Below are positions 18,258-40,232 of a DNA stretch of 64,000 nucleotides, piece by piece. Position 1 is the first letter of the stretch. The number at the start of each line of letters is the position of its first letter. Position numbers and translations under genes: made by a program. Origin of the DNA: an uncultured virus (IMG/VR IMGVR_UViG_3300008050_000035) (Duplodnaviria > Heunggongvirae > Uroviricota > Caudoviricetes); IMG/VR virus record IMGVR_UViG_3300008050_000035, positions 1 through 64,000 of that record, one strand, 5' to 3'. The notes below the pieces were generated by a model. That model was not told the origin of the DNA. It did not search any database and was given only the letters and a program-made list of their open reading frames with translations.

Positions 18258-18625
18258 TAGAAACCTGCCATGCTGGTAGCAATAGCGGCTACCTGCTGAA
18301 TGGTAGGGAGCTGCTCAAGGAGCGGAGGGACAATGATTTGATTTGGAAATGGTGTAGCCACAGTGCTTGGAATCATAGTCAGAGGCCAAGGAAGGTCTTG
18401 AATCATGCCGGCGTATTTCATATTATGACTTAAGCCTTGAATATTTATTCTAGAAGGAGTGCCGCCAGACAGGGTTAAGCTATCTTCCTTAACTCCAATA
18501 AAGCTTTTACCACCTACACCAATGCGCACTTCACCAGGGTCCCCAAGCAAACTGATGTGAGCTTCCACATCCCCAGTTTCGCTCCAATAACTCATGCGCC
18601 ATGTTTTTTGCGGTCTCGTACTCAT
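18257..18625 (-). CDS. Putative central spike component (short beta-repeat protein)
   Basis: 122 aa between the hub and the gp25-like gene, with beta-strand repeats (EVRIGVGGKSFIGVKEDSLTLSGG). Confidence 0.4.
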   Translation of the reverse strand: MSTRPQKTWRMSYWSETGDVEAHISLLGDPGEVRIGVGGKSFIGVKEDSLTLSGGTPSRINIQGLSHNMKYAGMIQDLPWPLTMIPSTVATPFPNQIIVPPLLEQLPTIQQVAAIATSMAGF

Positions 18626-19050
18626 ATAAAACTCACTACGTCAAAGACACCAGTACCACTGCTATTTCGCAGCGGCTTAGTAGGCTCACCTAACAGCACA
18701 AGGCGTCCCTCTTCCGGTCGAAGTCCATTATACATGATTGTACCTCGAACACCTTCTAAAAGAACAGCATTTCCATGAGTCTTTAAAATCTCAGCTTCAC
18801 TAGCCATAAAGGGGACATAGAATTTCCTTTTAGATCTTAAAGCTTGGACCTTAGCCACCATAGTGCCAGGCTCTCTTTTGACAAGATGTGCAATTTCTGC
18901 AGGAACTCCATCCTTATCAAGTGCATCTGCATCATAAACCTGCAGTACCACTACCTCAATAACAGTACGCCCAAGTGCTTGAGGGCGCTTGGATAGCAAT
19001 CTGTTTTGTCGAATTCGCTCCTGTAAGGCATTCCCTGGAATAACTGACAT
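18622..19050 (-). CDS. Putative spike N-terminal (OB-fold-like) baseplate protein
   Basis: 142 aa directly after the hub gene, where the gp5/gpV OB domain normally sits; the assignment is mostly positional. Confidence 0.35.
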   Translation of the reverse strand: MSVIPGNALQERIRQNRLLSKRPQALGRTVIEVVVLQVYDADALDKDGVPAEIAHLVKREPGTMVAKVQALRSKRKFYVPFMASEAEILKTHGNAVLLEGVRGTIMYNGLRPEEGRLVLLGEPTKPLRNSSGTGVFDVVSFI

Positions 19051-22000: not shown

Positions 22001-25000
22001 CAAAATGCTGAAGTTCTGGCTCCAACATCATGGCTCCTAGGAGCTGGTGAGTAGTCGCAAATGCACGACTGTCGTTAGCCGCACTGGTTCCCTTTATGGC
22101 TTGCTGCAATTCGGTACCAAAGCTTTGAACAAGAATTTCTGCTCTATCTCCACCCTGATTCCAAGTGACGTCTACGACACGGCCGTTAATCAAAACTTCT
22201 AGCAGATCAGGATCATTGCTATAGCCAACTCTTAGCTGTACATTTAGTCCTGGTCGAAGAACCAAAGCGCCAAAAGGTTGGTCAAGAGCACTTCCCTCAT
22301 TGACAGAATCTCCACTAAGCTTACTAGCTTCCCCTGGAATATTAATTTTGCTGGAATCTGAAAAATAGTCCAAATCTACAACAGCATCACGCTTGGTGCC
22401 ATCCAGAGTGCCAGCTACGTTTAGTAAACTAACGACAGCATGATCAGCAGGACTTTTTCTATTCTGCTCAACAGTAAAACTAGTTACGCCATTATAGCTG
22501 AAGAAATCATCAAAGTTGAGAAGCCGACTCTCAAACTCATCTTCTTCAACAAAGAAAAGCTTAAAGGTAGGATAAGCCCGAGACATTCTGCGCTTGCGAC
22601 CGAAAATATCATTAGCACTATTCAAAGCCAGCTTGTTTAGCGACTCTTTATTGAACCTATGAGAAGGGTCGGATTCTCGCTCAACAAGTGTACCCCTTAA
22701 CCTGTCTGCTAAATTCTCAGGAATTTCTTTCTGGTCAAGATAGCCACTACGACTACCAAACATCTGATCTACAGATGCTACTGCATCCTGAAGCTCATTA
22801 TATTGAGCCGCAGTAACACGACGCGGATACTGTACCCCGCCACCCTGACCAAAAGCACCTTCAAAATTACTTAAACGTACATCTTCTACATGGACACTGG
22901 ACAGAGCTTTGGCTTCTTCTATTGAGATTGACAATTCTGGTTTGGTTGAATCCTTCTCAGTCCCCATGCGTGCTTCTTCAGCTTCACTCTGCAATGCATC
23001 AACAGCATTAGTGATATTGCCAATATGCTCTGAAATCGCTTCGGTACTTTCAGGATTGGGATAAAACGGAAACCCTGTTGCGCCTTTTTTTCCAGTGTCC
23101 GTAGCCTCAGCATTGTAATACTGAGGTAAACTAATGCGATCGTCCGTAGCTGGCTCCTGTACGTACCTGTCACCACTAGGCTCATAGGAACCACCGCTCT
23201 CAATCTTCTTCATGGAGTTGTAGCAATTGCTAACAATATCACCCATAACATCTTGAATAGCAGTAATTACAGTTCTGTTGTGCGCATCTCCATCTTCATA
23301 CATGTTCCACATATAAAAATCAGGAGGGCAAGCAGCAATATCTCCGTAATACGGATGATGCGGTAAGTCCATATCAGGTAATGCGGGAGAGCCCTGAATG
23401 CGCGCTCGCTTGTTCACACGACTGAGCCCCTGAAGGCCAAACGCCTTCAGGACGTCATAATCATTAAGCAGATCACGAGCGTAGCGTGCAAACAAGCTTT
23501 TGAAATATTCAATCTTTTTACTTTCTAAACTGGCTTCTGCGTGCCAAATAAATGGTCCTCCAGGAGGCCAAATGCCCTCCTGCTTATTAAAAAAGAACCA
23601 ATCCCAAGACGCTCCATCTGGTAGTAAGATAGGAACAGCAATCTGCCCTTTGGGAATGTCAGATGGCTGAGCAATACCGATATCTTGGTTTTCCTTACTA
23701 GCCTCACGAATATTGTCGCTTGTAGTACCACGCTCAGTCATAACGTACTTTGGCATATCGAAAAATCTATCAAACTGAAAATCACCACAACTTGCAGCTG
23801 TTTTCTTAAGCTGCTCAGTCGTACTTGCAAAGACTGGAGAGCCACCCTCTCCAGCAACAGTACCAAGTATATCGCCAAAGATAGTGCTACTCACATAGGA
23901 CTTGAAACGCTCTTCTACAAGATCTCTAACTGGCAATTGCCACATATAATTGTTAGCAATATCAGTTAGAACGTCATCATGCATCTCAGCCCAAAAATCA
24001 GCGTAGATACCACGATCACTATCATTCCATTGGCCAAACTTAGTTTTTAACGCCTTGTCACCACCATTGACAACAGTTGCCCATATAAAACTTACAGGGC
24101 GCTCGACAATAGTGCCAAGAGCACCCCAGCCAACCAAACCACCAGCATAGCCTGCTCCAAAACCTGTCTGTAGTTTTTTCAAATCAACAGATGTCAAACC
24201 GTTCTGCGGATGCCACTGTAGCCAATTTTGATTTTCTACCAAGTGTTCTACAACAGCACCAGTCGCAAGCGACTCTTCTAGAGGTTTTGTTTGATTAGAA
24301 GAACTGGGTCCAGGATATGGATTAACAGCAGCAACAGTAGCTAAGTAGAGCTGATAGCCCTTGAAAAGATTTGGCTGCACAGGTAGCTCGTAGAGTTCGT
24401 CCTGCACAAAATCAATAGTATTCCCGCCTGCCTGCACTGTGCCATAAGCAAGTTGGTCGTCAGACTCAGCAAGAATAGCACTAGCAGTCTGAATTGTCTT
24501 ATGAATCATTGTCCAATAGTCAAGAATCTTCTCCATCGGAACTTTACCAAGAACTTGCGTATCTTGGCTTGCCTGAAGAAGAGCACTAATGTCAAATTCC
24601 TTAGGGGTAATGTTTTCATCCGGAACTGAAGAAGCTGTAGGGGCAGCTACAGGTCTGCCCTCCTTGGCCACTTGGGCGTAAGCTGCTCTCCAAGCATCGC
24701 CTTGATGCCCACCGGCACCACCGCTTTGCGGAACACCACCAAACACCTGGTCTAAGGGAACTGCGTTCAAATTAGAAAAGATAGAGGATTCTGGCAAAGA
24801 TGTGCCAGCACCAACAATATTGCCAATACTGTCTGGGCCATTAGCCAAAGAACTGAAGTCATCGCCAAAAATAATCCAGTCATTATCACTCTTGTCTCTG
24901 TAAAGAGCCACATTATCATCTTCTACCAAGAGTGGCGATGTGACGTACGACAATTCGAACTGACCAAATTCATCCGACTCTTGGCGATATGTGTTAGCAC

Positions 25001-28000
25001 CAGCAAGCTGAGCAATGAGTACTTGCTGAAGTAACTCAGCTGCCTCATCTTTGAAAGCTAATTTGTAAACTGCATTTAAAACTTTAGAATATGCAACTTC
25101 TAAATCCTCTACTGCAGGAGCTGTACCATTAATAGCCTCACCAACGTAAGGGTTAGTTTCAGACAGTTCAATAGTATGACAACTCATGCCAGGATGTCCT
25201 TGCACAGTCATACTGTTACTACGAGTAACCATAGCACGCCTAAGGACTTCGATATCTGCAATTACTGGCTCTTCACCAGCTTCCGTGACGTTGTTGTACG
25301 TAGCAATCTGAATGTCATCAGGAGAGAAAGTACCCAAGAGCCTAGTAACAAAACTATCCACAGCGACACACCAACTATCCGTAATGCCACGAAAGTTACG
25401 TGCATTCGCATGCAGCAACCCTCGCATCGCAAGCAGCACTTCAGTCTGCTTGCTGACACCTGCAAGTCTTTGTGTGCCACTACCCTCGAAATCCACAGAG
25501 CAAAATTCGAAACTGTAAAACGGCTCAATGCTACCCAAATGCTGTTGGGTAGGAAACTCATACCCAAGAATAGGAATATTTGCCACTATGTGACGAAGAC
25601 CGCCAGCAACAGCAGTGAGAACAGTAGGGTCAGAATAAAAGCCTTTTTCAAGTTGTTCTTCGTTTCCAGGCCCAACTAAAAGCTTGTGGTGCTTCCACCA
25701 CACATTAGTAATCTTGCTGTCACGATCATAATACAGCCAACCGTCTCTCCAAAGATTGTCTAAGATCTGACCAACAGACTGAAGCTCTTCGTTGCTGATA
25801 TTGCCTTCTTTTGCTTCTTCTGCAATGTCTTCCTTGACAGTTGTTTGAGTAGGAGTTGTGAAAGAAGGGCTGGCAGTTAGTTCATAACTTCCAGCAACAC
25901 TGGTCTCCAAAGGACCACTTAAGTCCACGGGGACCATGCGACTAGAACGTTTCCAATCCTCTTTTAAAGCTGGAGTACCAGTCCATGGCGGATCAATACC
26001 TACTCCAAGATCTTCACTTTCCCAATATTCAAAATGAAGATGAGTTTGGTAATGCCAAACACTACTTCTCTCTCCACTTGGATTGTCCCAGAAATTCTGA
26101 TTAGAAGTTCTGGATATGTACTGATATCCATTAGAGCCAGAGGTCAGATATTCTTTTCTAGCTTCTACTATAGCATTGGCTTTAAATGCTTCATTCATAG
26201 GGCCACTACCACTCATCCAGCCAATGAGTGTTCCGGCAGGAATCTCCTCTGTGGCGTTAAGTGAATTCATTGCGGCTTCAGAAACACCACCAAGATGCAT
26301 ATACATACTCAGGTTGTTCCCATGAGACATTTGTATATAATTGCCCGCACTAGGAGCTTCGACATAATACCAAGCATTACGATACTTGATAGATTTAACA
26401 AACGAGCCAACGGGGAACGTTTCCCCAAATTCTCTAGTGACATTCGCTCCTCGAAAATTAACTTCTGGAACGATAGCCTTGATGCTGACTTCAAAATCTT
26501 CCTGATCGAAAGGCAACGAAGTAAGCTCTGTGTCATTCAAGTACGCAAGTTTCCAACTCCCACCACTAGAAGAATCCGTCAATTGAATATGACTGACAGT
26601 ACCTGCCTCAACAGCATAAATAGGCACTAAGACGTCTGGCTTATTTCGATCACGATCACCTGCACCAATGTCAGTACCCCAGTGCATACTTCCACCAGTT
26701 GGGCGGCCTGCCAAACGAGATCGAGTAGCTGCAGAACGCCAATGGACAGTATCTGTAACGCGCACTTCATCAACAGGCATGGGTACATCTTCGTTAGAGT
26801 AGCCTACTGGTGACACACGAGGACTGCCGTCTTTGCCGAGAGCACTACTGAAACGTCTACGTACTTTAACTCTGTCTACATGAAAAGTGTCAGTGGGATC
26901 AAAACGCAATTCCCAACCATCTACCTCAGTACCACCTGCGGACGGTAGCTTGTCCTTGGCAACACGTAACGTCTCTTTGTGCGCATCACTAATCATACCG
27001 GTCCACTCCGCTGGAAGCCTAACTTCCTTGTACGCAAAGAAGTGAAACAGTGCACCACCATGAACACTGTTCATCTTTGCAACAATGCCATTTCTAAGGA
27101 ACTTCCATTCACGATACAACTCTTCAGTACTTGCTGGAGGTCCAGAATGCAAACCAAAGGTATGTCTGTCATTGCGATACAAAACGGCACTAAACAGCGC
27201 TCCCCAAAGAGTGCTGGTTAGAATCTCTTTCTCAACATCAATAGAGAAAGCTTTCATAAGGGCATCTCGTTGCAACAGGTTGATATACCTAGTATAGATG
27301 CGTGATTGCGCTGGACGTTGAACAAATTCTGATTGAGCCATTTTGTCAGGCAAGGGGAGAAGATCAAAAATCTCCCCTTGGTGAAACTCTTCCATCTGTT
27401 CAATAGTCAATTCTTGACGATCTTGATACTGACCTTGAACAGCACTCCAAGAACGGATCTCATTATCAGAATTACCAAGCTTCGGCAGAATAGTGTGTTT
27501 TTGTTTTTTTTGACCAGCCTTCGCATCCCATCCAATAGTGGTTTCAATACCACTGCCTTTTGTATGCGAAGTCTCACCTGTAACTGGAAGCGTATGCCAA
27601 TCTTTACGATAGAGCCAATTGTGAACATATGGGAAATAATTAAACCAAGTAAGATCTAATTGCATAATCCATGTGTCGCTGCTGCCCTGCATGGGCGCAA
27701 CATTCAAACCAGTCATAGTAAACGCCATGGCCTGGCTGTAGGGCCAGTGTGGCACAATCGTTTCTCTAAGGAAACGATTTTCAACATAACAGAAAGGACT
27801 GTGTCTAAATTCAACAACCAGTCTATGCATATCTAAAACCATAGGACCTGTGAAGGGAATGGTGATGCTTACAGCCACCTGCCCATGTCCGCTTGGAACT
27901 TTGGTTGTCGCGCGCTGACGCAGTGCTCTCCACTGCCAAACCAAATCTTCAATCTGAATATCAATGTTCGTTGGCGGAACTACGAGGTCAATGTCATTGA

Positions 28001-28064
28001 TAACAAAAACATTCTTACGGTATCCGTAAGTCGGCTCGAATTGGTCCATGGTCTTGGTTGGCAT
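19050..28064 (-). CDS. Giant baseplate hub / tail-associated lysin: M23 metallopeptidase domain plus gp27/VgrG-like hub segments and hydrophobic helices
   Basis: About 3004 aa (ATG 28064, TGATG overlap). M23 motifs HWGTD (26670-26684), YMHL and HLHFE (26028-26042). Hub-type motifs LRPGLNVQLRVGYSND...INGRV and YRGEIVILGNPRIRPWD...FEVEQIVHQFS..TGFISEI. Confidence 0.75.
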   Translation of the reverse strand: MPTKTMDQFEPTYGYRKNVFVINDIDLVVPPTNIDIQIEDLVWQWRALRQRATTKVPSGHGQVAVSITIPFTGPMVLDMHRLVVEFRHSPFCYVENRFLRETIVPHWPYSQAMAFTMTGLNVAPMQGSSDTWIMQLDLTWFNYFPYVHNWLYRKDWHTLPVTGETSHTKGSGIETTIGWDAKAGQKKQKHTILPKLGNSDNEIRSWSAVQGQYQDRQELTIEQMEEFHQGEIFDLLPLPDKMAQSEFVQRPAQSRIYTRYINLLQRDALMKAFSIDVEKEILTSTLWGALFSAVLYRNDRHTFGLHSGPPASTEELYREWKFLRNGIVAKMNSVHGGALFHFFAYKEVRLPAEWTGMISDAHKETLRVAKDKLPSAGGTEVDGWELRFDPTDTFHVDRVKVRRRFSSALGKDGSPRVSPVGYSNEDVPMPVDEVRVTDTVHWRSAATRSRLAGRPTGGSMHWGTDIGAGDRDRNKPDVLVPIYAVEAGTVSHIQLTDSSSGGSWKLAYLNDTELTSLPFDQEDFEVSIKAIVPEVNFRGANVTREFGETFPVGSFVKSIKYRNAWYYVEAPSAGNYIQMSHGNNLSMYMHLGGVSEAAMNSLNATEEIPAGTLIGWMSGSGPMNEAFKANAIVEARKEYLTSGSNGYQYISRTSNQNFWDNPSGERSSVWHYQTHLHFEYWESEDLGVGIDPPWTGTPALKEDWKRSSRMVPVDLSGPLETSVAGSYELTASPSFTTPTQTTVKEDIAEEAKEGNISNEELQSVGQILDNLWRDGWLYYDRDSKITNVWWKHHKLLVGPGNEEQLEKGFYSDPTVLTAVAGGLRHIVANIPILGYEFPTQQHLGSIEPFYSFEFCSVDFEGSGTQRLAGVSKQTEVLLAMRGLLHANARNFRGITDSWCVAVDSFVTRLLGTFSPDDIQIATYNNVTEAGEEPVIADIEVLRRAMVTRSNSMTVQGHPGMSCHTIELSETNPYVGEAINGTAPAVEDLEVAYSKVLNAVYKLAFKDEAAELLQQVLIAQLAGANTYRQESDEFGQFELSYVTSPLLVEDDNVALYRDKSDNDWIIFGDDFSSLANGPDSIGNIVGAGTSLPESSIFSNLNAVPLDQVFGGVPQSGGAGGHQGDAWRAAYAQVAKEGRPVAAPTASSVPDENITPKEFDISALLQASQDTQVLGKVPMEKILDYWTMIHKTIQTASAILAESDDQLAYGTVQAGGNTIDFVQDELYELPVQPNLFKGYQLYLATVAAVNPYPGPSSSNQTKPLEESLATGAVVEHLVENQNWLQWHPQNGLTSVDLKKLQTGFGAGYAGGLVGWGALGTIVERPVSFIWATVVNGGDKALKTKFGQWNDSDRGIYADFWAEMHDDVLTDIANNYMWQLPVRDLVEERFKSYVSSTIFGDILGTVAGEGGSPVFASTTEQLKKTAASCGDFQFDRFFDMPKYVMTERGTTSDNIREASKENQDIGIAQPSDIPKGQIAVPILLPDGASWDWFFFNKQEGIWPPGGPFIWHAEASLESKKIEYFKSLFARYARDLLNDYDVLKAFGLQGLSRVNKRARIQGSPALPDMDLPHHPYYGDIAACPPDFYMWNMYEDGDAHNRTVITAIQDVMGDIVSNCYNSMKKIESGGSYEPSGDRYVQEPATDDRISLPQYYNAEATDTGKKGATGFPFYPNPESTEAISEHIGNITNAVDALQSEAEEARMGTEKDSTKPELSISIEEAKALSSVHVEDVRLSNFEGAFGQGGGVQYPRRVTAAQYNELQDAVASVDQMFGSRSGYLDQKEIPENLADRLRGTLVERESDPSHRFNKESLNKLALNSANDIFGRKRRMSRAYPTFKLFFVEEDEFESRLLNFDDFFSYNGVTSFTVEQNRKSPADHAVVSLLNVAGTLDGTKRDAVVDLDYFSDSSKINIPGEASKLSGDSVNEGSALDQPFGALVLRPGLNVQLRVGYSNDPDLLEVLINGRVVDVTWNQGGDRAEILVQSFGTELQQAIKGTSAANDSRAFATTHQLLGAMMLEPELQHFGRWEFGQLYQVGEGQDARLDFVDYSRKGFLGAFKATNRVTDWMLNNPIITATLAIGGAAVLGRIPGVGRLLRPAAGLARTGAVATRGVKNFSWVSKWLGTLGVNGPGTAFYRSALTNIVGKRIGVATTVANKVVQADIRAVSRLVKNQQALRGMALRDAGGTAGRALVRESQRIQANAIRRAAVGSIDDAARALAKADAEIANLVLKGQWMSHPMQQIAGQSVGLLRSVGIKPISRVWGGIWYRAPLLVGGVSISALPLAGLDWAFSELYDASVGRIKAYFRQKQVSLFLSPQDDNLFPPHPKDYMEIYDKSWTKVWEDMKMWVVKTGVSAFVTDDELGYQAARWFGNKPALDKRVAPASCSFRLISTTIWDVFHEMSLRHPGWIYAARPYGHAFRYTMFFGVPSQRYWSQPGDNEFVRRANDLNEVLGNSSVDMNEYRRLYGDVVDDGYTSLLLEDFDANLDEEAIVAASVDRNSANDMVTNTVYVNDPATQQSVPVEITTGTVYETDPVDVDKIKSSLSQLTYTPRAMKEYLRALNLRFKPFRRYHSVTSEHDIVWNGLMSSENAVHNAVDVTYFEENAKFGDSPASSAMFKAHAFIPEHDLRVLPLQPSYNVRGYQMAMRYGVGSLLHTMREMYRGEIVILGNPRIRPWDVGILSDSYNDMVGPFEVEQIVHQFSHETGFISEIKPSAMVIANETSSWPVLEAIKVAALAVRDVEDQYEGLGATDPGARFRFLDWVLGFGAGNDSSSLQGALDLGTPHAATEYRKYLEERAAELRPFDPFANPKTGKSDLEEIREIEDELGSVKRGLTQFTGGALGVATGALALKGIPWVFGAAGKTVPKFLRMQSGTAMGVMGILGAGGAVFAGNRLTPSLTWLLGSPILFLQALRGDSIMLVPLMKNGNPIVSGVNLTDPSMIWNNFKGDLGRWVEDTLDGTRDLTDIWRLYGKHAWRRNEHLKRTFDANSDVWNQNKQLYAELTGES

Positions 28065-31000
28065 CAATACTCTCCCATTAGTCGATCAGTATAAGATCTC
28101 GTGATTGGACGTCTAGTGTCATTAATTCTAACTGACCCAGCAGCATTACCTCCAGTCATCGCCCCTACGTACTTCATAGCTCCGTTGAGCCCGAATCCGT
28201 TTGGCAACACACCTTTGATTTGATAACTGCTTGGGCGCGACATATACGCACCACCACTATTGATTGGCCTGTCTATCATACCATAATCACTTGACGGCCT
28301 GCCAAGACTTTCTGGCGCTATGTGACCTCCACTGTTTTTAAATAAACTTCCTTGAGCAATAGCATTGCTAACTTGAGGAGAGGTGTACTCTCCGGGTGCT
28401 GAAAGAGGAGTGGCAGCATAGCCTGGCGTGCCAATCGCACCCATTGCAAACATACTTGCAGCTGCACCCATTGCGATGGGCGCAGCCATCCTTTTGTCAA
28501 GCTTGTCTATGAGGTTGGTGATTTGCCCAAGCCCTTTAGAAAAACCAGCCATACCATGTTGAGGAGAATCACTAAACGCAGCCATACCAGCAGTTTCCAT
28601 ATTGGAGCCTGCTAGAGCTTGGATAAACATATTGGGACCAGCAGAAAAAGCATGCGACATAGCCTTAGCAGTGCCAGGCATATTGGTTCCGGCAGCTACA
28701 GCAGAGTTGGCCACCTTCAGAGACGCATCTACAAAATTGTCAATATTGACGCTAAGCGTCCTACCCTTCGTAATTTCAGCAGCCCACTGGCCGGTCCTGC
28801 CCTCCCCTACAATATCACCAACTTTAAAGCTGGTGTTCTGGTTATGAAAAATCTTATTCTTTAGAACATTGCGAAGCTCCTCAGCAGAATCTTGAGAAGG
28901 ACTGGACATTAGCCGCTCAACGGCTCCACCCACCTCTTCGGCAAGAGGTACAAATACTTTCAGCTTCTTAGCCTTGAGAAGTACGTTCTCCTCAAGGGCA
29001 CCAAGGATATCTCGATGCGCACGAATCTGATCAATATTGGCTCCATAGTTGCCAAGAGCCTCGTGCAACCCACGAAGACGAACGTCCATCGCACCAGTTT
29101 GCTGCGAAATACCCATCTCCTTCATCATGTCTTGCACAATTTTATCATCTAGGCCCCCACCAAGAGTATCTCCATAAGAAACCATACCCTTCTTGATAGC
29201 AGTACCCACACCGCCTTTAAGCACACGACTTTGAAGCTCCATAGCTAAACGCGCAGGATCCCCGACTTGTGCAGCAAGTCTCCTTCTCACTATTGCGCTA
29301 GTCTTGGGATCAAGCATCATGCTAAGTGCTGTATCACCATCCATATCCATGAATGCTTGAGGCGCAAGTCCAATGTCACCAGCTGCAGTAAGTACACGAG
29401 GCACAATCATGCGACCACCACCCTGCCCACCGGTAAATTGATCAATATTGTCAATCAGAGTGCGAAAAAACTTGCGATTAGCATCATTGCCTTTGTCACC
29501 AGTAGCTGCTGCAATATCGGCGAAGCTTTTAATATCTTTGCGAAAGATACTTTTCATGAACTCTTCACCTCGCATCTGCTTAAACTGCTGATCGCCAGCA
29601 GCATCCAAACCACTAAAAACCTGGAGTTGCGCTCCTTTGATTTTATTAAAAAAAGCATCAGTACCTTGAAGAGCACTAACTTCTCGTAGATCACGGAACA
29701 CTTGGGACATAAAAACATTACCTGCAGAAATAAGAGGATGTCGTCCACTCACGCGAATAAGACCGCTGCCAAGCCTTTTGTTTCCTGCTTTATGTTCCAT
29801 TCCTGTAAAGAACATGCGAGCACTCTCAGCCAATTGCTTACTGCTAGTGCCACCAGCTTTCTGACCATGAAGTTCGCTTAGCATCATGGTCGCGTCAGCA
29901 AATACAGCAGTGCCACCAGTACTTCTAAAAAGTTGGTTAGCTACACGACCCTGCTGGCGGCTAGTAAAGCCAGCGCCAGTAGTAAGGTTATAAGAACTAA
30001 CTCTAGGAGAACTACTGCCCCGAACCTTGCCACGAGCAAGGTTCGCAATACTGGTACTCATAAGATCCAAAGCATTACTGCGCCAAGTCTTGAGACTTTC
30101 ACGCAGAGGGTCACCACCTGTAGTAGCATGATCGGCCAAACGCTTTTGCAAACCACTCACAAGCTGACCATACGCAGCACTGACCTCTTTGCTTTGCCCT
30201 CCAGCAATTCGCACACTAGTCCCACTGCCAGCCTCATAGGCTTCCATGCCTGGCATATACATACTGCTAGATCCAAAAACATCCTGAACGGCTCTGCCAA
30301 TGTGCGCAGGAGCGTCACTAAAATCTAAAATGGCTCCTTGCTTCTGAGTACGCAACCAATCTGTCATCTGTCCAGTTGACCTGCCACCCTCAGTGAAAGC
30401 GTCACCAAACTGACTGTACTTGAGGCGCGTAGCACCTCTTTCGGTGAAAGCGTCTACAGCATTACGATGCCCAGTGACACTGCGCCCCATACCCATCATT
30501 TGCTCAGCGAGAGCATAGTGACGACCAAAGCCAATTTTATTAGTATAGATGCCAGCAACTGCGTCAACAGACTGCTCTTTGCTCATACCTAGCTGAAGCA
30601 TGCGTTCGTATGCTGTCTGAGCGAATCTGCGTTCAAGACCAACACGCGCAGCACCCCAGTCTCCGGCGGATGGGCCAACTTGAACCGTGTCAATAAAACT
30701 AACAAGTCCGCGTCTCATCGCCGCAAGAGCATCAGCGCTTCCAGCACCAAGTCCACGAACCATCTTCTGAAGTTTCGCCTGGTCAATTCCGCCTTTACCA
30801 ACACCTCCGCCCTCTGCCCCATGGTATACGCCAGCAAGCATCATTCCAATATTCTTAGCACCAACACCACGCTGCTGCATTAATTCAAATGCAGCTTGAG
30901 CGTAAATCTGATGTCCCTGCTTGCCTAGCATACCTCCACCAGCATCTGAAAGAGCCTGCGCTCGAGCACGCAATGTTTTGTGGTTTACGCCAAACATTTT

Positions 31001-33187
31001 TGCGGTTCCCGCTATTTGGTGTGTAAAACCAAAAGTACCTTTGCTAAACATGTCACTACTAATGTACGCAGCACCATACTTCATGTCTCCCAATCCAGAA
31101 AGTTCTGAAGCAAGCTCACCCAGCCTTTTGTCTTGTCTGTACAGACGGTCAATACCTGCTTGCCCGATATTCTCCATGTTGCCTTTAAAGCTAGCGCTAA
31201 ACATTTTAAGAAAATCCATCTTTCTAATCTGTTGGCCACGAAAATAAATCATGTCTTTCTTGTAACTGATGCCAGTACGATCTAAAGCAATATCAAGAGC
31301 TTCAGTAGCTGGATCCCGAGGTAAGTACTTTCTGCCGGAACCAGTCTCTCCAACATACAAATTCTGAGCCAATTCTTCTGGAGTGAATTTACCATTGCCT
31401 GCAAGAATGCGTGTCAATGTTTCACTAGCCGCATAAGCGTGTTTCTCTGGATTGAGAACAGAGAATTGAATAGGCTTACTTACTCTGTGAGACACTCCAG
31501 TGACCCCCATGCCAGAATCACCATAAGACTTACTTAAATGACCAGCATTAGAAAAATCAACAACCATCATCTTGTTTAAACCACCAGACGCATGAGAACC
31601 CCAACCCTGAGACACTTCACTAATGGCACGGTGTCGAAGCACTCCCGGACTGAGTTTACTCTCTCCAGGGCGAGTAAACTTATTTCGAAGACGATCTAAA
31701 GAAACATCAGAAGCCTGCCCAACACCACCTAGGTAAGCACCCCCAAACGTACGAAGAGAATCAAGAGAGTAGCTACTTCGACCAAGGACTTGCGCTTCAC
31801 GCGCAGTGATAGGAAGCTGGTGTCTGTCGACAGCAAACTTGCCATACGCACTCTGAAGAGCGCTAAAGCCACTTTTCGCTCTAAGGCCTAGTACAGATCT
31901 ACGCTCCTGCCCAAAGCCAGTAACAAGGCGCTTAGCGCCTACAGCACCACCCTCAAAATCACCTCCAGAACCAAGCTGAGCAATAAAACGCATCGCCTCA
32001 CCAGAGTCCATTGCTCCAAAAGTATGCCCAAACACTGCATTCGCACCAAGTGCTATTTGTCGACGTATATGTCTTCCGATATACCCAGAAGTCATAGCTG
32101 CACGATCAACGTGTTGAGTAGCCATGCCCATATTTTCCCTAAACGCCTTCCAGTCAACGCGTCCTTTCGCTGCACGAGAACCAATGTCTTGAATAAGATA
32201 ATCAGAAAAACTAGTCAATGCTCCGCCAGCCCTAAGCTGTCCAACCGTCATGTTTGCAGCATCAAGTCCTTGTTGCCTAACAAGCTGGTGTGCGTTTTGA
32301 ACATTCATGGCATGTTTTGGAGTCGAGTAAAGAGTGTTGAAACTCTGACCACTGCGAAACAATCCATGCTCGTGTAAGGGTACGCTAGCTACCCATTGTC
32401 CACGATTCAAAATTTGTGCTTGCCTAAACTGCCTGCCGCCTTCAGTAAAAGAGGCAACACGCATTTTGTAATCACCTTGAGACAGGTGGGCATTCAGACG
32501 CAAAGCCCTTCGTTCCCAAGGTTTGAGAGCTTCTTTAGCTTGCCTCCTGCTAAGTAAGGTTCCAACATCAATAGAATTGTAAGCAACACCGCCTTTTGGG
32601 ATTGAAAAATTAGGAGACTGAAGCTGACCGCTGATGTTTCTAAATTCACTTAAATTCTCTTCCCATTTTAAAAGAGTCTCGGCAGAACCACTATCAAGAA
32701 GAGATCTAGTAACTTTCTCGGCAAACTCTTCTACAGAGTTTGGACTAGCCTCACTAAGCAAACGGCTAATCTCTCCTTTCAGAGAGCTAACGGCAGAAGC
32801 ATTAAGACCACTAGCAGGATCTTCAAGTGTTACGGAAAGTGTCTGAAGAAGTGCATTGTGTTGCTCTACGGTGCCAATGATTTTGCGTAACTCATCAGAA
32901 TCACCAAGCCCTCTTTTAATTTTATCAACAACTTTGGCTGCACGCTCACTTCTGGCTTGTTGAGACTTTCGAGCTGCAAGGCCTTTGGCCTTGCCAATAG
33001 CCTGAGAAGGCGTAGCTTTAGAAAGAGGGTTGTTTAACGCCTCGTTTCTTTTAAGGTGTCTTTGCCCATGCCAAATACCAACAGCTACAGGGCTTAACCC
33101 TACGGCAGTCTTAAGTAGCGAAACACCACTTTGAACAGTGGTGTCAGCATCTTCGTGAAACTGGTTAAAGCGATCATTAGTAGCCAC
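28064..33187 (-). CDS. Putative single-chain two-barrel (double-psi beta-barrel) virion RNA polymerase
   Basis: 1707 aa, GTG start. Ordered motifs: YGDSG (D557), KMFSASFKG (K661/K668), AAYISSDMFSKG, GAARVGLE, NLARGKVRGS (K1054), SGRHPLI (R1149), AFMDMDGDT (D1281/D1283/D1285 at 29333-29347), QTGAMDVRL and EENVLLKAK. Confidence 0.72.
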   Translation of the reverse strand: MATNDRFNQFHEDADTTVQSGVSLLKTAVGLSPVAVGIWHGQRHLKRNEALNNPLSKATPSQAIGKAKGLAARKSQQARSERAAKVVDKIKRGLGDSDELRKIIGTVEQHNALLQTLSVTLEDPASGLNASAVSSLKGEISRLLSEASPNSVEEFAEKVTRSLLDSGSAETLLKWEENLSEFRNISGQLQSPNFSIPKGGVAYNSIDVGTLLSRRQAKEALKPWERRALRLNAHLSQGDYKMRVASFTEGGRQFRQAQILNRGQWVASVPLHEHGLFRSGQSFNTLYSTPKHAMNVQNAHQLVRQQGLDAANMTVGQLRAGGALTSFSDYLIQDIGSRAAKGRVDWKAFRENMGMATQHVDRAAMTSGYIGRHIRRQIALGANAVFGHTFGAMDSGEAMRFIAQLGSGGDFEGGAVGAKRLVTGFGQERRSVLGLRAKSGFSALQSAYGKFAVDRHQLPITAREAQVLGRSSYSLDSLRTFGGAYLGGVGQASDVSLDRLRNKFTRPGESKLSPGVLRHRAISEVSQGWGSHASGGLNKMMVVDFSNAGHLSKSYGDSGMGVTGVSHRVSKPIQFSVLNPEKHAYAASETLTRILAGNGKFTPEELAQNLYVGETGSGRKYLPRDPATEALDIALDRTGISYKKDMIYFRGQQIRKMDFLKMFSASFKGNMENIGQAGIDRLYRQDKRLGELASELSGLGDMKYGAAYISSDMFSKGTFGFTHQIAGTAKMFGVNHKTLRARAQALSDAGGGMLGKQGHQIYAQAAFELMQQRGVGAKNIGMMLAGVYHGAEGGGVGKGGIDQAKLQKMVRGLGAGSADALAAMRRGLVSFIDTVQVGPSAGDWGAARVGLERRFAQTAYERMLQLGMSKEQSVDAVAGIYTNKIGFGRHYALAEQMMGMGRSVTGHRNAVDAFTERGATRLKYSQFGDAFTEGGRSTGQMTDWLRTQKQGAILDFSDAPAHIGRAVQDVFGSSSMYMPGMEAYEAGSGTSVRIAGGQSKEVSAAYGQLVSGLQKRLADHATTGGDPLRESLKTWRSNALDLMSTSIANLARGKVRGSSSPRVSSYNLTTGAGFTSRQQGRVANQLFRSTGGTAVFADATMMLSELHGQKAGGTSSKQLAESARMFFTGMEHKAGNKRLGSGLIRVSGRHPLISAGNVFMSQVFRDLREVSALQGTDAFFNKIKGAQLQVFSGLDAAGDQQFKQMRGEEFMKSIFRKDIKSFADIAAATGDKGNDANRKFFRTLIDNIDQFTGGQGGGRMIVPRVLTAAGDIGLAPQAFMDMDGDTALSMMLDPKTSAIVRRRLAAQVGDPARLAMELQSRVLKGGVGTAIKKGMVSYGDTLGGGLDDKIVQDMMKEMGISQQTGAMDVRLRGLHEALGNYGANIDQIRAHRDILGALEENVLLKAKKLKVFVPLAEEVGGAVERLMSSPSQDSAEELRNVLKNKIFHNQNTSFKVGDIVGEGRTGQWAAEITKGRTLSVNIDNFVDASLKVANSAVAAGTNMPGTAKAMSHAFSAGPNMFIQALAGSNMETAGMAAFSDSPQHGMAGFSKGLGQITNLIDKLDKRMAAPIAMGAAASMFAMGAIGTPGYAATPLSAPGEYTSPQVSNAIAQGSLFKNSGGHIAPESLGRPSSDYGMIDRPINSGGAYMSRPSSYQIKGVLPNGFGLNGAMKYVGAMTGGNAAGSVRINDTRRPITRSYTDRLMGEY

Positions 33188-36100
33188 TTAAGTATCTCTC
33201 CATTGCTGTGCCAATATCAATGGCACGGTTATCATTGTAATCAACTTGTACAGTACTCATCATACCTTTCCATGGTGCTACATGCCAACTGCCACGACTT
33301 CCTGCAGTGCCAGTCATTTGAGTAAGTCCTCTACTCATAGCAGAACCTATCGGAACCCCAGGTTTGTTTTGTTGTAAGAAATCTGTACTCCCGTCTAGCA
33401 TAGGTTGTTGCATGCTTTTCTTGAGCTGTTTTTCCCATAAGCCGTAATCCGACAGCTCTGCACCCATCCTGTCGACATATCTAACCTGAATATCACTCAT
33501 GTCGACATCCTCATGCCAACCCACCCAATCTTCGGAAGGCATTGGCCCTTCTAGAGATCCAGCAACACGTGCTTCTTGAGCAGCTAAATGCGAATCGCTA
33601 ATAGCGTTATCAGCACCAGCCCAAAGATTCTCATCTCCAGAATCCATTCGGCTCCAAATTGCCTTGTAAAGGTGTTGTTGGTCGGCGGGAACCATCTCCA
33701 TAATACGATGACGATCTTTACCAGAAGCATGAGCGAAAGCATTGAAGAATTTTCTTTCACTATCAGGAAGTGTCCAGTACATACTTAGAGAGCTCCCTTG
33801 AGGATTCACACCAGCACGAGTATTGGCTTGAGCCCAGCGGTACTGTGCTGCTGCACGAGAATCTCCAGAAAGTTCTGCCTGTTCGCGCAACCTTGCCCAT
33901 TTTAGAAATTCTAATTTATCAAAGTACTCGTTTGCACTATCAGCCTTGTGTCTCCACAGAGGCTTACCTTCCCATCCCATCATATTTAAAGTGCTGTTCA
34001 TGGCTGGTCGAAACCAATCGCGCCATGGCTTATCCCAAAAAGCCATAGGTGTACCATATAGACGCTCGTACTCATACTGCTCAATAGCATCTCTGTCACT
34101 CATGAGTTTTTGCACGGGACGAAAGCCCATAGGTACGAGATATTCTCCTGGTGCTGTTACCCGACGTGCTGCTCGCTGTCCCGCAGCCCAAGCAGCTCGG
34201 GTTAATCCCGAGCCTGGTAGCCTGATAGCATTCTTGTGTAGTCTGTCATCACTAAATCCACTAACTTGCTCTGAGTGATTGCGATCCACTGCCTCCATGA
34301 AAGCAATTTGCTTCTCATTGTAAGCTCCCTCCATGCGCTGCTTGTACACAGCTTGCTTGTAAAGAGTGTATTCCTGAGAAAGTGGCGCTACGTCACTAAG
34401 GATGGCAAATCTAAATAAGGCGGGGTAAGCCTCTGGATCTACCCCTCGTAGTTCAGGGTGTAAGCCTGCATAGCCTGCACCTGGCAAGCGTCCTTCTCCC
34501 CATTCTATTGAGCGATATGGGTCTCCCCATTTGAACTTGTCTGGCAGCCAGCTAGGCATATTGTTGGCAAGCGGATTGCGACGATCTATCTCGCTACGCA
34601 TTCTAGGAAAGACGCGACGCAAAAATTCATTTGAAAACAATGCACCACCCATGTTCATCTCCCAGAAACGAACACGGCTGCTAGTCATCAAACTAGCATC
34701 TGCCAGCTGTTGGCTGTCAGCCGCCCAAACATCATCTCCAGTTAAGCCCTGCTGGATAACATTCTTAGCCCAGCCAGTCATACCTTCCAGCTCTCTGAAT
34801 TGGTAAGACAAAAAACTCAATTGATTGGTAGCACTGTAAGGACTTGTCGGCACACCGTGATGAGCTCCCAAAGCTGTGGCTGGCTCAAAGCGCGACCCTT
34901 TGTACACATTTCCATACTCAAGCCCACCATCTTGTCCAGGACGAATCCATTCGCCTGCATGCATAACTCTTGCAGGCTTGATTAGCCTGCCAATAGTACT
35001 TGAGAGCACACCGCCAATTATTGGCACGTCTGAAAACGCAGCATTACTTATGGGATAAGGTCTATCCCAATACTGCTGTGTTTCTAATTCATAAGTAAAG
35101 TTTTGACGAATCCACTTGCCTAGGGGACTTATCTTGTCCTCATCTGCACCCCAAACACCTTTCTCGCGCACTCTGTTCATCATGAGAGAATACTGATGTG
35201 GTCTGTAATAGTCTGTTTCACCACCCTCGAATGGAGTGCCACCTGCTTCCCACCACCTACTTGATTTAACGGCAACCATTTTTCTGCCAGAATAGATGTC
35301 ACGCAGATCGTCTGCAGTTTCCTTACTGCCTAACAGGCCACCAGTGAGAAGCTGATGTGTGCCAAAAATAGCAGCTCCGACACTTGCCCACTTGCCCAGC
35401 CGGCCTGCTGAACTGAATCCCATATCGCCAATTCGACGACGCAAAGCTTTGTCTGCACCGACATCTGCACCAAAGAAACTATAGTAGGCTTGAGTACCAA
35501 AACCTTTGGCTTCCTTCTTAAGGCGAGCAACCAGGTTGGGGGTGTCTCCATACTTGGCGCTAATGTCGCGCAACCTACGCTCTAGCGCTTCGTTCATAGG
35601 GTTGCCTTGCCTGTAGGTGTCCAGCTGCTCTTCAGCCCTGTAGAATGCAGTATTGAGGTCTTGCATCATCTCTAAACGCTTGTTGTCATACACACTGGTG
35701 CGCAAGTGTTTCATCAAATCGCGTCGTTGCCGAAACCCTTCATGAGGTAGGTTGTTAGCCAAACCGCTAACATTTTTATAATAGAGATCTCGCACATTGC
35801 TGTTTGCCAATTGTACCTGACGGACTTTGTCTGCCTGTAAATCTAATTTCAAGCGCCTAGGTCCAGCAGACTCAAGCATCGTCTGGGCTAGACTCATATT
35901 GCGACCAGGCAAACTAACACTGGTGGCCATAATGCCACCAGTTGCTAACAGCGCACCAGTTTCCCAATCGGTACTTCCAGGAGCGAAACCCTCAAGGGTC
36001 CGACGCAAATAATTGAAAGGGTTCAGTGCATTGGCACGAGCGACATCCATGCTGACAGCACCGGTTGCAACCCCTTGCATAACGCCTTGATCAAACCCAG

Positions 36101-37277
36101 GAAGAATCATTTGGCCAAAGAAACTTGCAGCTGCAGCAAACATAGCCGTGCGCGGCTGCTTGGCCATCTTGCCAACAGCATACCCGACACCGGCGCTTAC
36201 CGCCCCACTAGCAAGAATTTGCCCAGGCATTCCATATTGTCTTCGTACCCAATCTGCTTGGCTTGCCGCAAGTACAGTACTTCCAGCAAGTGCAGCCCTG
36301 CCTCCAAAACGCATAAACATTGAGGAAGCTGGACCTGGACGAACGCCAGGAGATACACCCAAAATACTTTTGAATGCCTTTCCACCAGACTCACCAAGGA
36401 ACTGATCTGCCACACCTGAGACAAGACGATTAAATCTACCCATTTCAAATGCAGCCACACCTCGAATCATCGTAGTACGTCGAGCCAAATCACTTAAGTC
36501 TTTAAGGTCTCCAACCGAACTAGGAACTGGCATGAAGCTAGCTTGTTTTCTAACCCACTTTCCAGCAGCATCTTGCTTTGAGCCGAGAAGTACTTCTTTT
36601 TCATTGAAAGCATCATCAGCATACATATCTGCAGCAGCAAACATGCCAGTAGCAATTCTATTGACACCGCGCTCTTTAGTGAGTGGGTTGACAACTTCAT
36701 GACTCATAGCCTGCAAAGATATGCTGTCACTTAATAATTTTCTATTGCCTCCAAGCCAATGCCCAGTACTTTCGTCTAGTCTTCCACCTAGCACGCTGTA
36801 CAAGTTCCCACTGGAGCCACGTGGCTCAAACACCATGGCGTCAGCCAAGTGCTGAGAAGCTCCAAGCATGCCTTCAGTGATTCCAGCTGCTGTCATGCCG
36901 GCACGATCAAGCCCAGTGGCGTACTTAAGCCAATTGTAAGTACTACTAGACTCAAGAGCTTCACGTCCCCAGACAGTAACGCCTTCCGTGCTGCCAGAAC
37001 CAACCTTATACCCCATGGATGTAAATGGACTTAAGATCTCAGGAACACGAAAAGTATTTAAAATTTGGAACGGGCTCAGATTCCCGCTAAGCCGAGAACG
37101 AGCCGCAATGTAGTCAATTGGACGCCGGCCATTCGACATAGGCTTAGTAGCTGCATACATAGCACCCGCACCAGCTGCAACCGCAACCGCAAGCTTTGTC
37201 ATCTGACTGCCAGCACTATTGTAAGGTTCTGTGGAGTCACCATTCCAGGTGACCCCACCATAAGACTTAAGGGCCAT
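33177..37277 (-). CDS. Tape-measure-like / ejected virion protein
   Basis: 1366 aa immediately after two tail-chaperone-like genes. The N-terminal half is G/A-rich with several hydrophobic helices; the C-terminal half is rich in W/Y/P motifs (RWWEAGGTPFEGG, YWDRPYP, GDPY...GEGRLPGAGY). Confidence 0.65.
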   Translation of the reverse strand: MALKSYGGVTWNGDSTEPYNSAGSQMTKLAVAVAAGAGAMYAATKPMSNGRRPIDYIAARSRLSGNLSPFQILNTFRVPEILSPFTSMGYKVGSGSTEGVTVWGREALESSSTYNWLKYATGLDRAGMTAAGITEGMLGASQHLADAMVFEPRGSSGNLYSVLGGRLDESTGHWLGGNRKLLSDSISLQAMSHEVVNPLTKERGVNRIATGMFAAADMYADDAFNEKEVLLGSKQDAAGKWVRKQASFMPVPSSVGDLKDLSDLARRTTMIRGVAAFEMGRFNRLVSGVADQFLGESGGKAFKSILGVSPGVRPGPASSMFMRFGGRAALAGSTVLAASQADWVRRQYGMPGQILASGAVSAGVGYAVGKMAKQPRTAMFAAAASFFGQMILPGFDQGVMQGVATGAVSMDVARANALNPFNYLRRTLEGFAPGSTDWETGALLATGGIMATSVSLPGRNMSLAQTMLESAGPRRLKLDLQADKVRQVQLANSNVRDLYYKNVSGLANNLPHEGFRQRRDLMKHLRTSVYDNKRLEMMQDLNTAFYRAEEQLDTYRQGNPMNEALERRLRDISAKYGDTPNLVARLKKEAKGFGTQAYYSFFGADVGADKALRRRIGDMGFSSAGRLGKWASVGAAIFGTHQLLTGGLLGSKETADDLRDIYSGRKMVAVKSSRWWEAGGTPFEGGETDYYRPHQYSLMMNRVREKGVWGADEDKISPLGKWIRQNFTYELETQQYWDRPYPISNAAFSDVPIIGGVLSSTIGRLIKPARVMHAGEWIRPGQDGGLEYGNVYKGSRFEPATALGAHHGVPTSPYSATNQLSFLSYQFRELEGMTGWAKNVIQQGLTGDDVWAADSQQLADASLMTSSRVRFWEMNMGGALFSNEFLRRVFPRMRSEIDRRNPLANNMPSWLPDKFKWGDPYRSIEWGEGRLPGAGYAGLHPELRGVDPEAYPALFRFAILSDVAPLSQEYTLYKQAVYKQRMEGAYNEKQIAFMEAVDRNHSEQVSGFSDDRLHKNAIRLPGSGLTRAAWAAGQRAARRVTAPGEYLVPMGFRPVQKLMSDRDAIEQYEYERLYGTPMAFWDKPWRDWFRPAMNSTLNMMGWEGKPLWRHKADSANEYFDKLEFLKWARLREQAELSGDSRAAAQYRWAQANTRAGVNPQGSSLSMYWTLPDSERKFFNAFAHASGKDRHRIMEMVPADQQHLYKAIWSRMDSGDENLWAGADNAISDSHLAAQEARVAGSLEGPMPSEDWVGWHEDVDMSDIQVRYVDRMGAELSDYGLWEKQLKKSMQQPMLDGSTDFLQQNKPGVPIGSAMSRGLTQMTGTAGSRGSWHVAPWKGMMSTVQVDYNDNRAIDIGTAMERYLSGY

Positions 37278-38014: not shown

Positions 38015-38746
38015 TTAGAGCTGAGCAGTAATTACCATAGCTTGTTGTGGGGTGAGATGATAGCTGTGCAACATGACACTACCGTAAAGAGTTGGGATCA
38101 CACCACTGCGACTATTATAAAAGAATTCAATTTTCAGTTTGGGCCACAGTATGCATTGTTTGAGCACCTGCTCCATCATAAATTCTTCAGGATCTTTGTT
38201 CATGCCCTCTAGCTGTGCTTGCTTTGCCATAGCTTGTTGGATTTTCTGGAATGCAGCACGACGGAGATAGGTGAAAACATAAACATCACCACGACCCAGA
38301 GCCACAACTTGTACTCCATCCTGACCAAAGTCTCGTTTCCATCGAGCAATAGCAGCTTCAGATGGGGCACCCTTCTGATCAAAAAGCATTTGCCGAACAT
38401 GATCTTCAATAGCTATTTCTTCAGCAGGCGGGTCTTGTTCAGGAGCACGCTCAGCTTCTTGAGCAGCACGTTCAGCGGCAGCTGCACGCTGAATTGCAAG
38501 TTTCTCATCCATCTCTCTGTTAATACGATCGATTTCGTCTTCCACTTCTTGCTCCTCCATCTCGGTTCTTTCAGGAACCTCGCCTGCAAGCTTAATGCCC
38601 TTGGCTTCGGCTTGCTCAACGATTTCTTCGTTAAGGTCATCTATGTTTGCCAGAATCTGATCTGGAGTTGGTCCTGCTGTCTTTAAGCGACTAATCGCTC
38701 TAGCGTCTAGAGAAGGGGGATTTCCCCTAATGCGTCTACCTGCCAT
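38015..38746 (-). CDS. Tail assembly chaperone (G-like form) with an acidic N-terminal extension
   Basis: 243 aa. IARWKRDFG...YVFTYLRRAAF...VLKQCILWP...SGVIPTL; lies between the tube genes and the tape measure. Confidence 0.65.
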   Translation of the reverse strand: MAGRRIRGNPPSLDARAISRLKTAGPTPDQILANIDDLNEEIVEQAEAKGIKLAGEVPERTEMEEQEVEDEIDRINREMDEKLAIQRAAAAERAAQEAERAPEQDPPAEEIAIEDHVRQMLFDQKGAPSEAAIARWKRDFGQDGVQVVALGRGDVYVFTYLRRAAFQKIQQAMAKQAQLEGMNKDPEEFMMEQVLKQCILWPKLKIEFFYNSRSGVIPTLYGSVMLHSYHLTPQQAMVITAQL

Positions 38747-40218: not shown

Positions 40219-40232
40219 ATAGTGATCTCCTT

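Follow-up and report, generated by a model that had tools for sequence, protein, structure and literature searches.

Why two adjacent giant proteins of a phage tail module should end alike when they appear to have nothing else in common is the question raised by a locus of an uncultured virus (Caudoviricetes; IMG/VR record IMGVR_UViG_3300008050_000035). The window analysed here comprises bases 1-64000 of a 74,973-base phage contig; a 192,537-base record of the same virus, estimated to be complete, is a circular permutation relative to that contig. The phage is a jumbo myovirus (contractile tail) of the 0305phi8-36 / ME3 lineage. The two proteins, P0001 (1366 amino acids, aa) and P0002 (1707 aa), are encoded on the minus strand directly ahead of the gene for a 3005-aa hub protein, P0003. 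A first-pass annotation of the window had noticed their similar C-termini and a hydrophobic segment near residues 25-45 of both, and had proposed that a tape measure (P0001) and a virion RNA polymerase (P0002) are threaded together into the tail tube as a heteromeric tape. The open reading frames (ORFs), their lengths and both C-terminal strings were confirmed, and the hydrophobic segments were found near residues 20-45.

The shared element is a C-terminal tag of 28 residues, read as a strand, the motif Asn-Asp-x-Arg, a helix-like stretch and a terminal Tyr, with the tag Asp 18 residues from the C-terminus in both P0001 and P0002. Its conservation was followed in 123 P0001-family sequences (122 further relatives) and 138 P0002-family sequences (137 further relatives). 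Of the 123, 106 have the Asp 15-19 residues from the end (mode 18, n=57; motif absent in 11); of the 138, 129 have it 17-18 residues from the end (mode 18), and the seven P0002-family sequences without the motif include fragments that lack the C-terminus. The Asp is preceded by Asn in 81/112 and 123/131 sequences, respectively, and followed two residues later by Arg in both families. The last residue is Tyr in 60/123 or Phe in 16/123 members of the P0001 family, and Tyr in 81/138 of the P0002 family. Strand-like alternation over the eight residues before the Asp was seen in 98% of the P0001 family and 97% of the P0002 family, and helical amphipathicity after the tag Arg in 90% of the former and only 72% of the latter; this periodicity supports a strand in both families and a helix mainly in that of P0001. 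The Asn-Asp-x-Arg and terminal motif, on whose conservation the first-pass annotation had made its proposal depend, is therefore conserved in both families.

Within the P0002 family (129 representative clusters) the tag is as constrained as the putative catalytic residues considered below. Among 92 full-length relatives, 30 of the 1707 positions are at least 95% conserved, and these include the tag residues Asp1690 and Arg1692 (91/92 each); among 40 diverse relatives (19-62% identity) there are 16 invariant columns, which include both tag residues, Lys661, Lys668, Pro1151 and the Asp-x-Asp-Gly-Asp motif. The N-terminal hydrophobic segments are likewise a family trait: the highest-scoring Kyte-Doolittle window of 17 residues among residues 1-90 reached at least 1.0 in 92% of 118 P0001-family and 92% of 88 P0002-family full-length members, with a median start at residue 27 and residue 21, respectively. 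A weak profile alignment pairs a further hydrophobic stretch of P0002, rich in Ala, Gly and Met (residues 1567-1585), with one of like kind in the counterpart from Bacillus phage Edson.

Profile-profile comparison of the tails across homologues (112 versus 132 tails), a check suggested with the original proposal, placed 28 columns in register in local mode (probability 89%, E 2.1e-6, 21% identity); in global mode the probability was 18% and E 2.9e-4. With full-length family profiles of P0001 and P0002 the sole match was to the same 28 terminal columns. A hidden Markov model (HMM) of P0001-family tails, searched against the C-terminal 40 residues of every six-frame ORF in the 192.5-kb genome (1449 in all), returned P0001 at 51.9 bits and ranked the P0002 tail second (12.6 bits, E 0.0084), the next score being 5.3 bits, and 11 of 14 P0002-family tails exceeded all 2800 composition-preserving shuffles. 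BLASTP of full-length P0001 against P0002 gave no C-terminal match, and tblastn with the 50-residue tail against cultured phages gave chance matches only. A chance resemblance between two short termini would suit a motif of this size, and several results weigh on that side: the full-length profile match reached only E 0.22, the reverse HMM built from P0002-family tails ranked the P0001 tail 6th (3.4 bits, E 5.8), and a whole-ORF test on the 75-kb contig placed P0002 4th of 378 (E 2.1). Against coincidence stand the tails-only profile match, the second rank among 1449 tails and the shuffle test, and the residues shared are exactly those conserved in both families, so that we hold chance to be very improbable. 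Judged from sequence, the likeness of the tags is real but short, P0001 and P0002 are otherwise unrelated, and the tag is common to only these two proteins of the genome. Because they share nothing else, a shared function explains the retention of the tag better than duplication of a whole gene.

The genes stand where proteins of the tail lumen would be expected. The minus-strand order is terminase, portal, major capsid protein, sheath, tube, two tube paralogues and two chaperone-position genes of ~242 aa, followed on the same strand by P0001, P0002, P0003, proteins of 142, 122 and 143 aa, and baseplate J; both giants thus occupy the place expected of tape-measure genes in long-tailed phages, after those in the chaperone position and ahead of that of the baseplate hub. 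P0002 begins with GTG inside the end of P0001, an overlap of 11 bases that makes translational coupling possible, and the P0002 stop overlaps the P0003 start. The order from sheath through giant hub to the 142-aa spike-position gene was identical in 10/10 related viral loci, with a similar overlap or abutment of the two giant genes (-16 to +16 nucleotides). A large gene starts within the same distance of the stop of the P0001 homologue in 44 of 48 loci that carry the P0001 family; the remaining four are cut by the contig end or have no such large gene visible, and the 48 loci yielded 39 complete gene pairs. This setting, between chaperone-position genes and hub, overlapping and always paired, fits a role of both giants in the tail lumen.

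P0001 is homologous to gp145 of 0305phi8-36 and to ME3_35 (tblastn, significant over the conserved C-terminal half: ME3 E 4e-46, residues 654-1212; 0305phi8-36 E 2e-12), and tblastn also matched it to the Moorella, Edson, WH1 and KLEB27-3 phages. The gene order is conserved in ME3, 0305phi8-36 and other jumbo myoviruses. According to the record annotation, gp145 and gp146 of 0305phi8-36 were found in virions by mass spectrometry, and in WH1 and KLEB27-3 the annotation calls the counterparts structural. Searches of Pfam, PHROGs and NCBIfam placed neither P0001 nor P0002 in any family, described tape-measure families included, and the ESM Atlas yielded nothing usable, its only hint, a TMP_3 cluster ranked 17th (score 0.89), being no more than a lead. 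In 0305phi8-36 it is gp146 that was assigned as tape measure, from tail length, and only its last 60 residues were found to align with its prophage counterpart (Hardies et al., 2007; PMC2147016). The labels of the first-pass annotation were therefore partly swapped, since in this lineage the name tape measure was given to the counterpart of P0002, and P0001 is the gp145-type protein.

The label of virion RNA polymerase for P0002 has motifs in its favour. Eight invariant residues are listed for two-barrel polymerases, and Lys...Lys, Arg-x-Pro and Asp-x-Asp-Gly-Asp, in this order, are their signature (PMC2919709). In the 92 full-length relatives of P0002, Lys661, Phe663 and Lys668 are present in 90, 89 and 90, respectively, Arg1149 in 91, and Pro1151 and the three Asp of the acidic loop in all 92, giving an Arg-x-Pro followed by Asp-x-Asp-x-Asp; by analogy with the published list, Lys661 and Lys668 are candidates for the beta-type barrel lysines. 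A candidate beta-barrel Asp544 is conserved in only 77/92. The loop, as Asp-x-Asp-[Gly/Ala...]-Asp, occurs in 39/39 complete second-protein genes, 350-560 residues from the end. The polymerase-type region lies within the C-terminal two thirds of P0002, with an unusually long distance of ~130 residues between Arg-x-Pro and acidic loop (38-55 in Edson, KLEB27-3, ME3 and the stand-alone candidate described below). In the same-slot proteins of Edson and KLEB27-3, Arg-x-Pro-Thr lies ~38 residues before Asp-x-Asp-Gly-Asp, and RNA_pol_Rpb1_2 is the top Pfam match exactly there, at sub-threshold E-values of 0.12 and 0.0053, respectively.

All profile tests of P0002 for membership of the polymerases were negative, which weighs against the assignment. 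Pfam gave no polymerase match for P0002 or for 28 diverse members of its family, a search of the genome for PF00623 and PF05183 found neither, and PDB sequence profiles gave no polymerase match for P0002. The proven case is gp96 of phage P23-45, a tape measure whose N-terminal part is a two-barrel virion RNA polymerase (Chaban et al., 2024; PMC10770324); hhalign of the P0002 family against it returned a probability of 0.9%. Profile links to ME3_36/gp146 and to the stand-alone candidate (E 0.34) were not significant, nor were those to the Edson and KLEB27-3 profiles (E 0.08 and 0.25), although in these alignments Arg-x-Pro, the metal loop, the hydrophobic segment and the tag fall opposite their equivalents in the same order. 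These negatives weigh little because the proven P23-45 polymerase domain is equally invisible: in a calibration, gp96 likewise received no polymerase Pfam match. On the strength of its motifs, P0002 is probably a polymerase, and this part of the earlier proposal stands on the conserved residues and finds no support in the profiles.

Tape-measure-slot proteins with Arg-x-Pro...Asp-x-Asp-Gly-Asp are encoded at 16275-23822 in Edson, at 16100-23404 in KLEB27-3 and, as ME3_36 with a Gln variant, at 17349-22160. A second, stand-alone candidate two-barrel polymerase of 1090 aa lies outside the window, on the plus strand at 70903-74172 of the contig (11957-15226 of the 192.5-kb record). It has Arg-x-Pro and, 46-55 residues further on, Gly-Asp-Asp-Asp-Gly-Asp, conserved in 4/4 sequences; homologues were found in 3/5 related complete phage genomes (E 9e-85 to 7e-37), and searches against Pfam, NCBIfam, PDB sequences and cultured phages gave no match.

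If the two giants formed one tape, fused relatives or coupled lengths might be looked for. The fused forms that had been suggested as a check were not encountered among the sequences examined: all 129 P0002-family representatives are at most 2197 aa, five 'longer' P0001-family relatives measure 2403-2965 aa and four of these contain inteins, and none of 12 long or divergent P0001 relatives (1262-2965 aa) matches the P0002-family model. The lengths of the two partners were compared as a proxy for scaling with tail length. Across all pairs the first protein varies from 1249 to 2111 aa and the second from 1423 to 2480 aa, with ratios of 0.59-1.36 and a Spearman correlation of 0.23 (p 0.20). For the 29 pairs with a first protein below 1550 aa the correlation was 0.58 (p 9e-4, uncorrected for relatedness), and without likely intein carriers the ratio still spans 0.59-0.95. 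A constant ratio, suggested by the values of 0.76-0.83 in this phage, ME3, 0305phi8-36, Edson and KLEB27-3, was rejected on the wider sample. The coupling of lengths being loose, a strict two-part ruler is doubtful and at most one giant is likely to be a ruler; two cargo proteins with one kind of anchor therefore fit better than a two-part tape. Of the heteromeric tape, the conserved tag and a setting that suits the lumen survive, and the shared measuring function does not fare as well.

The inteins occur in 8 of 14 examined P0001 homologues of at least 1650 aa (P0044, P0051, P0061, P0066, P0071, P0072, P0078 and P0112), two of which carry two. They comprise 359-438 residues with a Cys start, a His-Asn end and Pfam intein and LAGLIDADG matches, and are inserted at four different, highly conserved positions, near P0001 residues 677, 833, 881 and 1254. 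In the Moorella phage MTATph1 (locus 19311-20798) a transposase gene lies within the apparent second giant gene, which is left in pieces of 1309, 252 and 313 aa, and the last piece retains a tag-like end.

The fate of the motif Arg in the two partners bears on whether one structure reads both tags. In 33 distinct pairs it was present in both proteins in 25, in the first only in none, in the second only in three and in neither in five (naive Fisher p 2.4e-4), and such joint loss fits a single reader of both tags. Several observations weigh against this. When relatedness was controlled, 3-4 independent contrasts gave 1.9 changes in the same direction, none opposite and 1.1 unchanged, with a median sign-test p of 0.5; a cross-similarity test of the tags in the close clade gave p 0.11; a tally of terminal aromatic residues over 13 pairs, made by eye, was 8/1/2/2 (p ~0.2); and in three cultured Firmicute phages, Edson, KLEB27-3 and the Moorella phage, the Arg is present in the first tag and missing from the second.

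What, then, might the tag bind? In phage Mu only residues 674-690 of the tape measure gp42 are ordered, gripped by hub and spike (PMC11915804), and in phiTE a C-terminal fragment of the tape measure is buried between the hub and the puncturing protein through Phe, Tyr and Leu contacts (PMC11972413). Because known tape measures are held by their last 17-30 residues in the hub/spike cavity, and because both genes directly precede that of the hub, docking to hub and spike is the best reading of the tag. We infer that the shared tag may fix both giants at the hub/spike end of the tail lumen and that the two may be delivered together into the host, a reading by analogy for which we consider the case about evenly balanced. 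Both giants would then reside in the lumen, each held by the same kind of C-terminal tag, which, at the onset of tail assembly, would lodge in the hub/spike complex at the tube's distal end. The N-terminal Ala/Gly-rich hydrophobic segments would point to the head end and could later insert into the host membrane. Contraction would expel both giants ahead of the DNA, and P0002, with its two-barrel signature residues, might then start transcription of the entering genome, of which the stand-alone candidate polymerase gene could be one target, as in the Thermus phage P23-45.

The proposed partner, P0003, is homologous over its C-terminal 1326 residues to the 'baseplate hub' ME3_37 in three colinear segments (E 8e-15, 9e-14 and 1e-6). 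Whole-protein scans with Pfam and NCBIfam gave no match above threshold, a Peptidase_M23 match being sub-threshold. Its parts appear to be an N-terminal region conserved with the start of the ME3 hub, the M23-type peptidase and a gp27-like hub interrupted by a long insert rich in Ala/Gly hydrophobic stretches; the C-terminal part adds further hydrophobic segments. The 142-aa spike-position protein, a possible co-partner, had no Pfam match and could be aligned with 8 relatives.

Two points count against docking. The tails of Mu gp42, P2 gpT and P23-45 gp96 do not match the tag models (at most 0.7 bits). Moreover, the trimeric hub of Mu and phiTE holds three ends (PMC11915804, PMC11972413), so that two proteins with like tags must either compete or find more sites on the giant hub. 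In phiTE six strands fill the tube (PMC11972413); in the wider and rather doubtful form of the proposal set out below, the two giants would perhaps be a three-plus-three bundle, which would offer an alternative reading of the six lumen strands of phiTE against its three hub-bound ends.

The same tag could instead be read by an assembly factor, such as a protein from one of the chaperone-position genes just upstream, which keeps the giants unfolded and passes them on to the tube as it grows, and would then be a loading signal and not an anchor. Tail chaperones of the lambda G/GT type do bind tape measure proteins (PMC2147016), but the structures place the C-termini of tape measures in the hub and not on chaperones (PMC11915804, PMC11972413), and the two chaperone-position proteins here match no family and, by BLASTP, share no G/GT-like domain; we regard a loading signal as unlikely. 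The tags might also be leftovers of an ancient event in which neighbouring genes duplicated or exchanged their ends, each having since been kept separately for a different partner. The modest likeness between the families (21% identity over the 28 columns) would agree with such a history, as would their dialects, the P0002 family having a nearly fixed Arg-Arg-Pro-Ile after the Asp that is absent from the P0001 family, and the further divergence of the two tags in Firmicute phages. The equal spacing to the C-terminus, the same Asn-Asp-x-Arg and the terminal aromatic residue have, however, been kept in both proteins over more than 30 distinct lineages, and the Arg was lost jointly in five lineages and never in the second protein alone, which leaves a mere relic an unlikely account as well.

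Virion RNA polymerases of N4, phiKZ-like and crAss-like phages travel in the capsid. By that precedent both giants could be ejection proteins packaged in the head, with the tag as a head-targeting or ejection-order signal and the position in the tail module historical, and the large, well-conserved regions of both do look globular rather than tape-like. The paper on P23-45 mentions fusions in crAss-like and N4-related phages (PMC10770324). Against a capsid location stand the invariant position between chaperones and hub, the overlapping reading frames, the assignment of the counterpart gp146 as tape measure from tail length (PMC2147016), and the fusion to a tape measure of the sole proven two-barrel virion polymerase of a long-tailed phage (PMC10770324); we consider it quite improbable.

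The features of the locus are collected in Table 1. Among the neighbouring genes, the first chaperone-position protein (38015-38746, minus strand) has a C-terminal stretch of ~30 residues that is nearly unchanged in all 10 related loci, and the second has an Arg run at its C-terminus in the nearest relatives. The sheath gene is followed by three successive tube-type paralogues (224, 263 and 222 aa; 38759-40978, minus strand), which match a PHROG family labelled 'major head protein' yet are annotated as tail tube in 0305phi8-36. Five copies of a 12-mer of the tRNA T-arm type were found in the 192.5-kb genome, outside the window, at 30997, 46405, 62866, 67237 and 70808, which suggests at least five tRNA genes; a search of that genome for repeated 12-mers as promoter candidates gave only tRNA-type motifs, no other 12-mer occurring five times or more.

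Table 1. Positions in the window of the two giant genes, their conserved elements and their neighbours
Feature	Position	Strand	Basis or remark
P0001 gene, 1366 aa	33177..37277	minus	homologue of the gp145 / ME3_35 'virion structural protein' family
P0001 N-terminal Ala/Gly-rich hydrophobic segment, residues 26-43	37149..37202	minus	
P0001 C-terminal tag, 28 residues	33180..33263	minus	
P0001 end / P0002 GTG start overlap, 11 bases	33177..33187	minus	sequence
P0002 gene, 1707 aa	28064..33187	minus	slot of gp146 / ME3_36; candidate single-chain two-barrel RNA polymerase
P0002 N-terminal hydrophobic segment, residues 22-41	33065..33124	minus	
Lys661...Phe663...Lys668-Gly669, candidate beta-type barrel lysine pair	31181..31207	minus	invariant in 40 diverse relatives
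Arg1149-x-Pro1151, candidate beta-prime-type barrel motif	29735..29743	minus	conservation
Asp1281-x-Asp-Gly-Asp1285, candidate metal-binding loop	29333..29347	minus	conservation
P0002 Ala/Gly/Met-rich hydrophobic segment, residues 1567-1585	28433..28489	minus	
P0002 C-terminal tag, 28 residues	28067..28150	minus	
P0003 gene, 3005-aa hub/lysin protein, proposed docking partner	19050..28067	minus	ME3_37 homology, sub-threshold Peptidase_M23
142-aa protein, possible co-partner of the tags	18622..19050	minus	position of the P2 gpV-like spike gene of 0305phi8-36
Two chaperone-position genes (243 and 242 aa), upstream of P0001	37277..38746	minus	gene position

In a wider form of the proposal, tag and N-terminal hydrophobic segment would jointly be a transferable address that directs proteins to the lumen of contractile phage tails: a carrier would be anchored at the hub and threaded into the tube, and a virion RNA polymerase loaded in this way beside the second giant. 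We put this forward tentatively and hold it, as yet, to be rather doubtful. If true, the lumen of a tail would be a cargo hold that can be programmed, and many large myoviruses would have injected enzymes and not mere rulers encoded in their tape-measure slot. The unannotated 'virion structural proteins' of the cultured jumbo phages ME3, Edson/WH1 and KLEB27-3 are candidate injected polymerases. How a tail of only a few nanometres lets large enzymes pass is understood for P23-45 alone, where polymerase and tape measure are fused. The present lineage suggests a second solution, with separate proteins that carry a common end-tag and are encoded beside the hub gene. It is widespread and mostly uncultured (second protein, 129 representative clusters; first protein, more than 120 relatives), and the tag, a mutable element of 28 residues with two invariant ones (Asp and Arg), would give a handle on the recruitment, numbers and exit order of lumen proteins. 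In the literature searched, neither the tag nor a polymerase-type protein encoded in the tape-measure slot of a myovirus is described; the accessible text of Hardies et al. (2007; PMC2147016) makes no mention of a tag shared by gp145 and gp146, and the two-polymerase survey in the P23-45 supplements, as far as accessible, names none of ME3, 0305phi8-36, KLEB27 and WH1 (PMC10770324).

Compared with known systems, the locus resembles P23-45 in that its tape-measure slot encodes a polymerase-type protein with Asp-x-Asp-Gly-Asp, which like gp96 is invisible to Pfam, and in that a stand-alone candidate polymerase is encoded elsewhere in the genome; in P23-45 the stand-alone enzyme is the non-virion gp64 (Chaban et al., 2024; PMC10770324). 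It differs in belonging to a myovirus and in that the candidate polymerase is a separate gene beside a second tagged giant, with no fusion in the relatives examined; P0002 has no detectable sequence similarity to gp96, and the gp96 tail has no tag match. With 0305phi8-36 and ME3 it shares the gene order, a gp145/ME3_35 homologue in P0001 and a homologue of the ME3 hub in P0003, gp147 being the hub of 0305phi8-36, and variants of the tag can be recognised by eye on tails of the gp145 and gp146 types. In contrast, HMM comparison detected no homology of P0002 to gp146 or ME3_36, gp146 lacks the Asp-x-Asp-x-Asp motif, and the polymerase of 0305phi8-36 is the separate orf99 (PMC2147016; PMC7824862). 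Like the tape measures of Mu and phiTE, P0001 and P0002 have a short, hydrophobic or aromatic C-terminal end and are encoded between chaperones and hub; unlike them, where a single tape measure is present, two unrelated proteins here carry the end-tag (PMC11915804, PMC11972413). The parallel with known tape-measure ends is one of principle and not of sequence. In the extracellular contractile injection systems PVC and Afp, payloads are directed into the lumen of the tube by a disordered stretch at their N-terminus. The tag would resemble these signals as a short, portable terminal element that brings bulky cargo into a contractile, tail-like tube, whereas the signals of PVC and Afp are N-terminal and borne by toxin-type payloads of non-phage particles, and those described here are C-terminal and borne by proteins of a phage.

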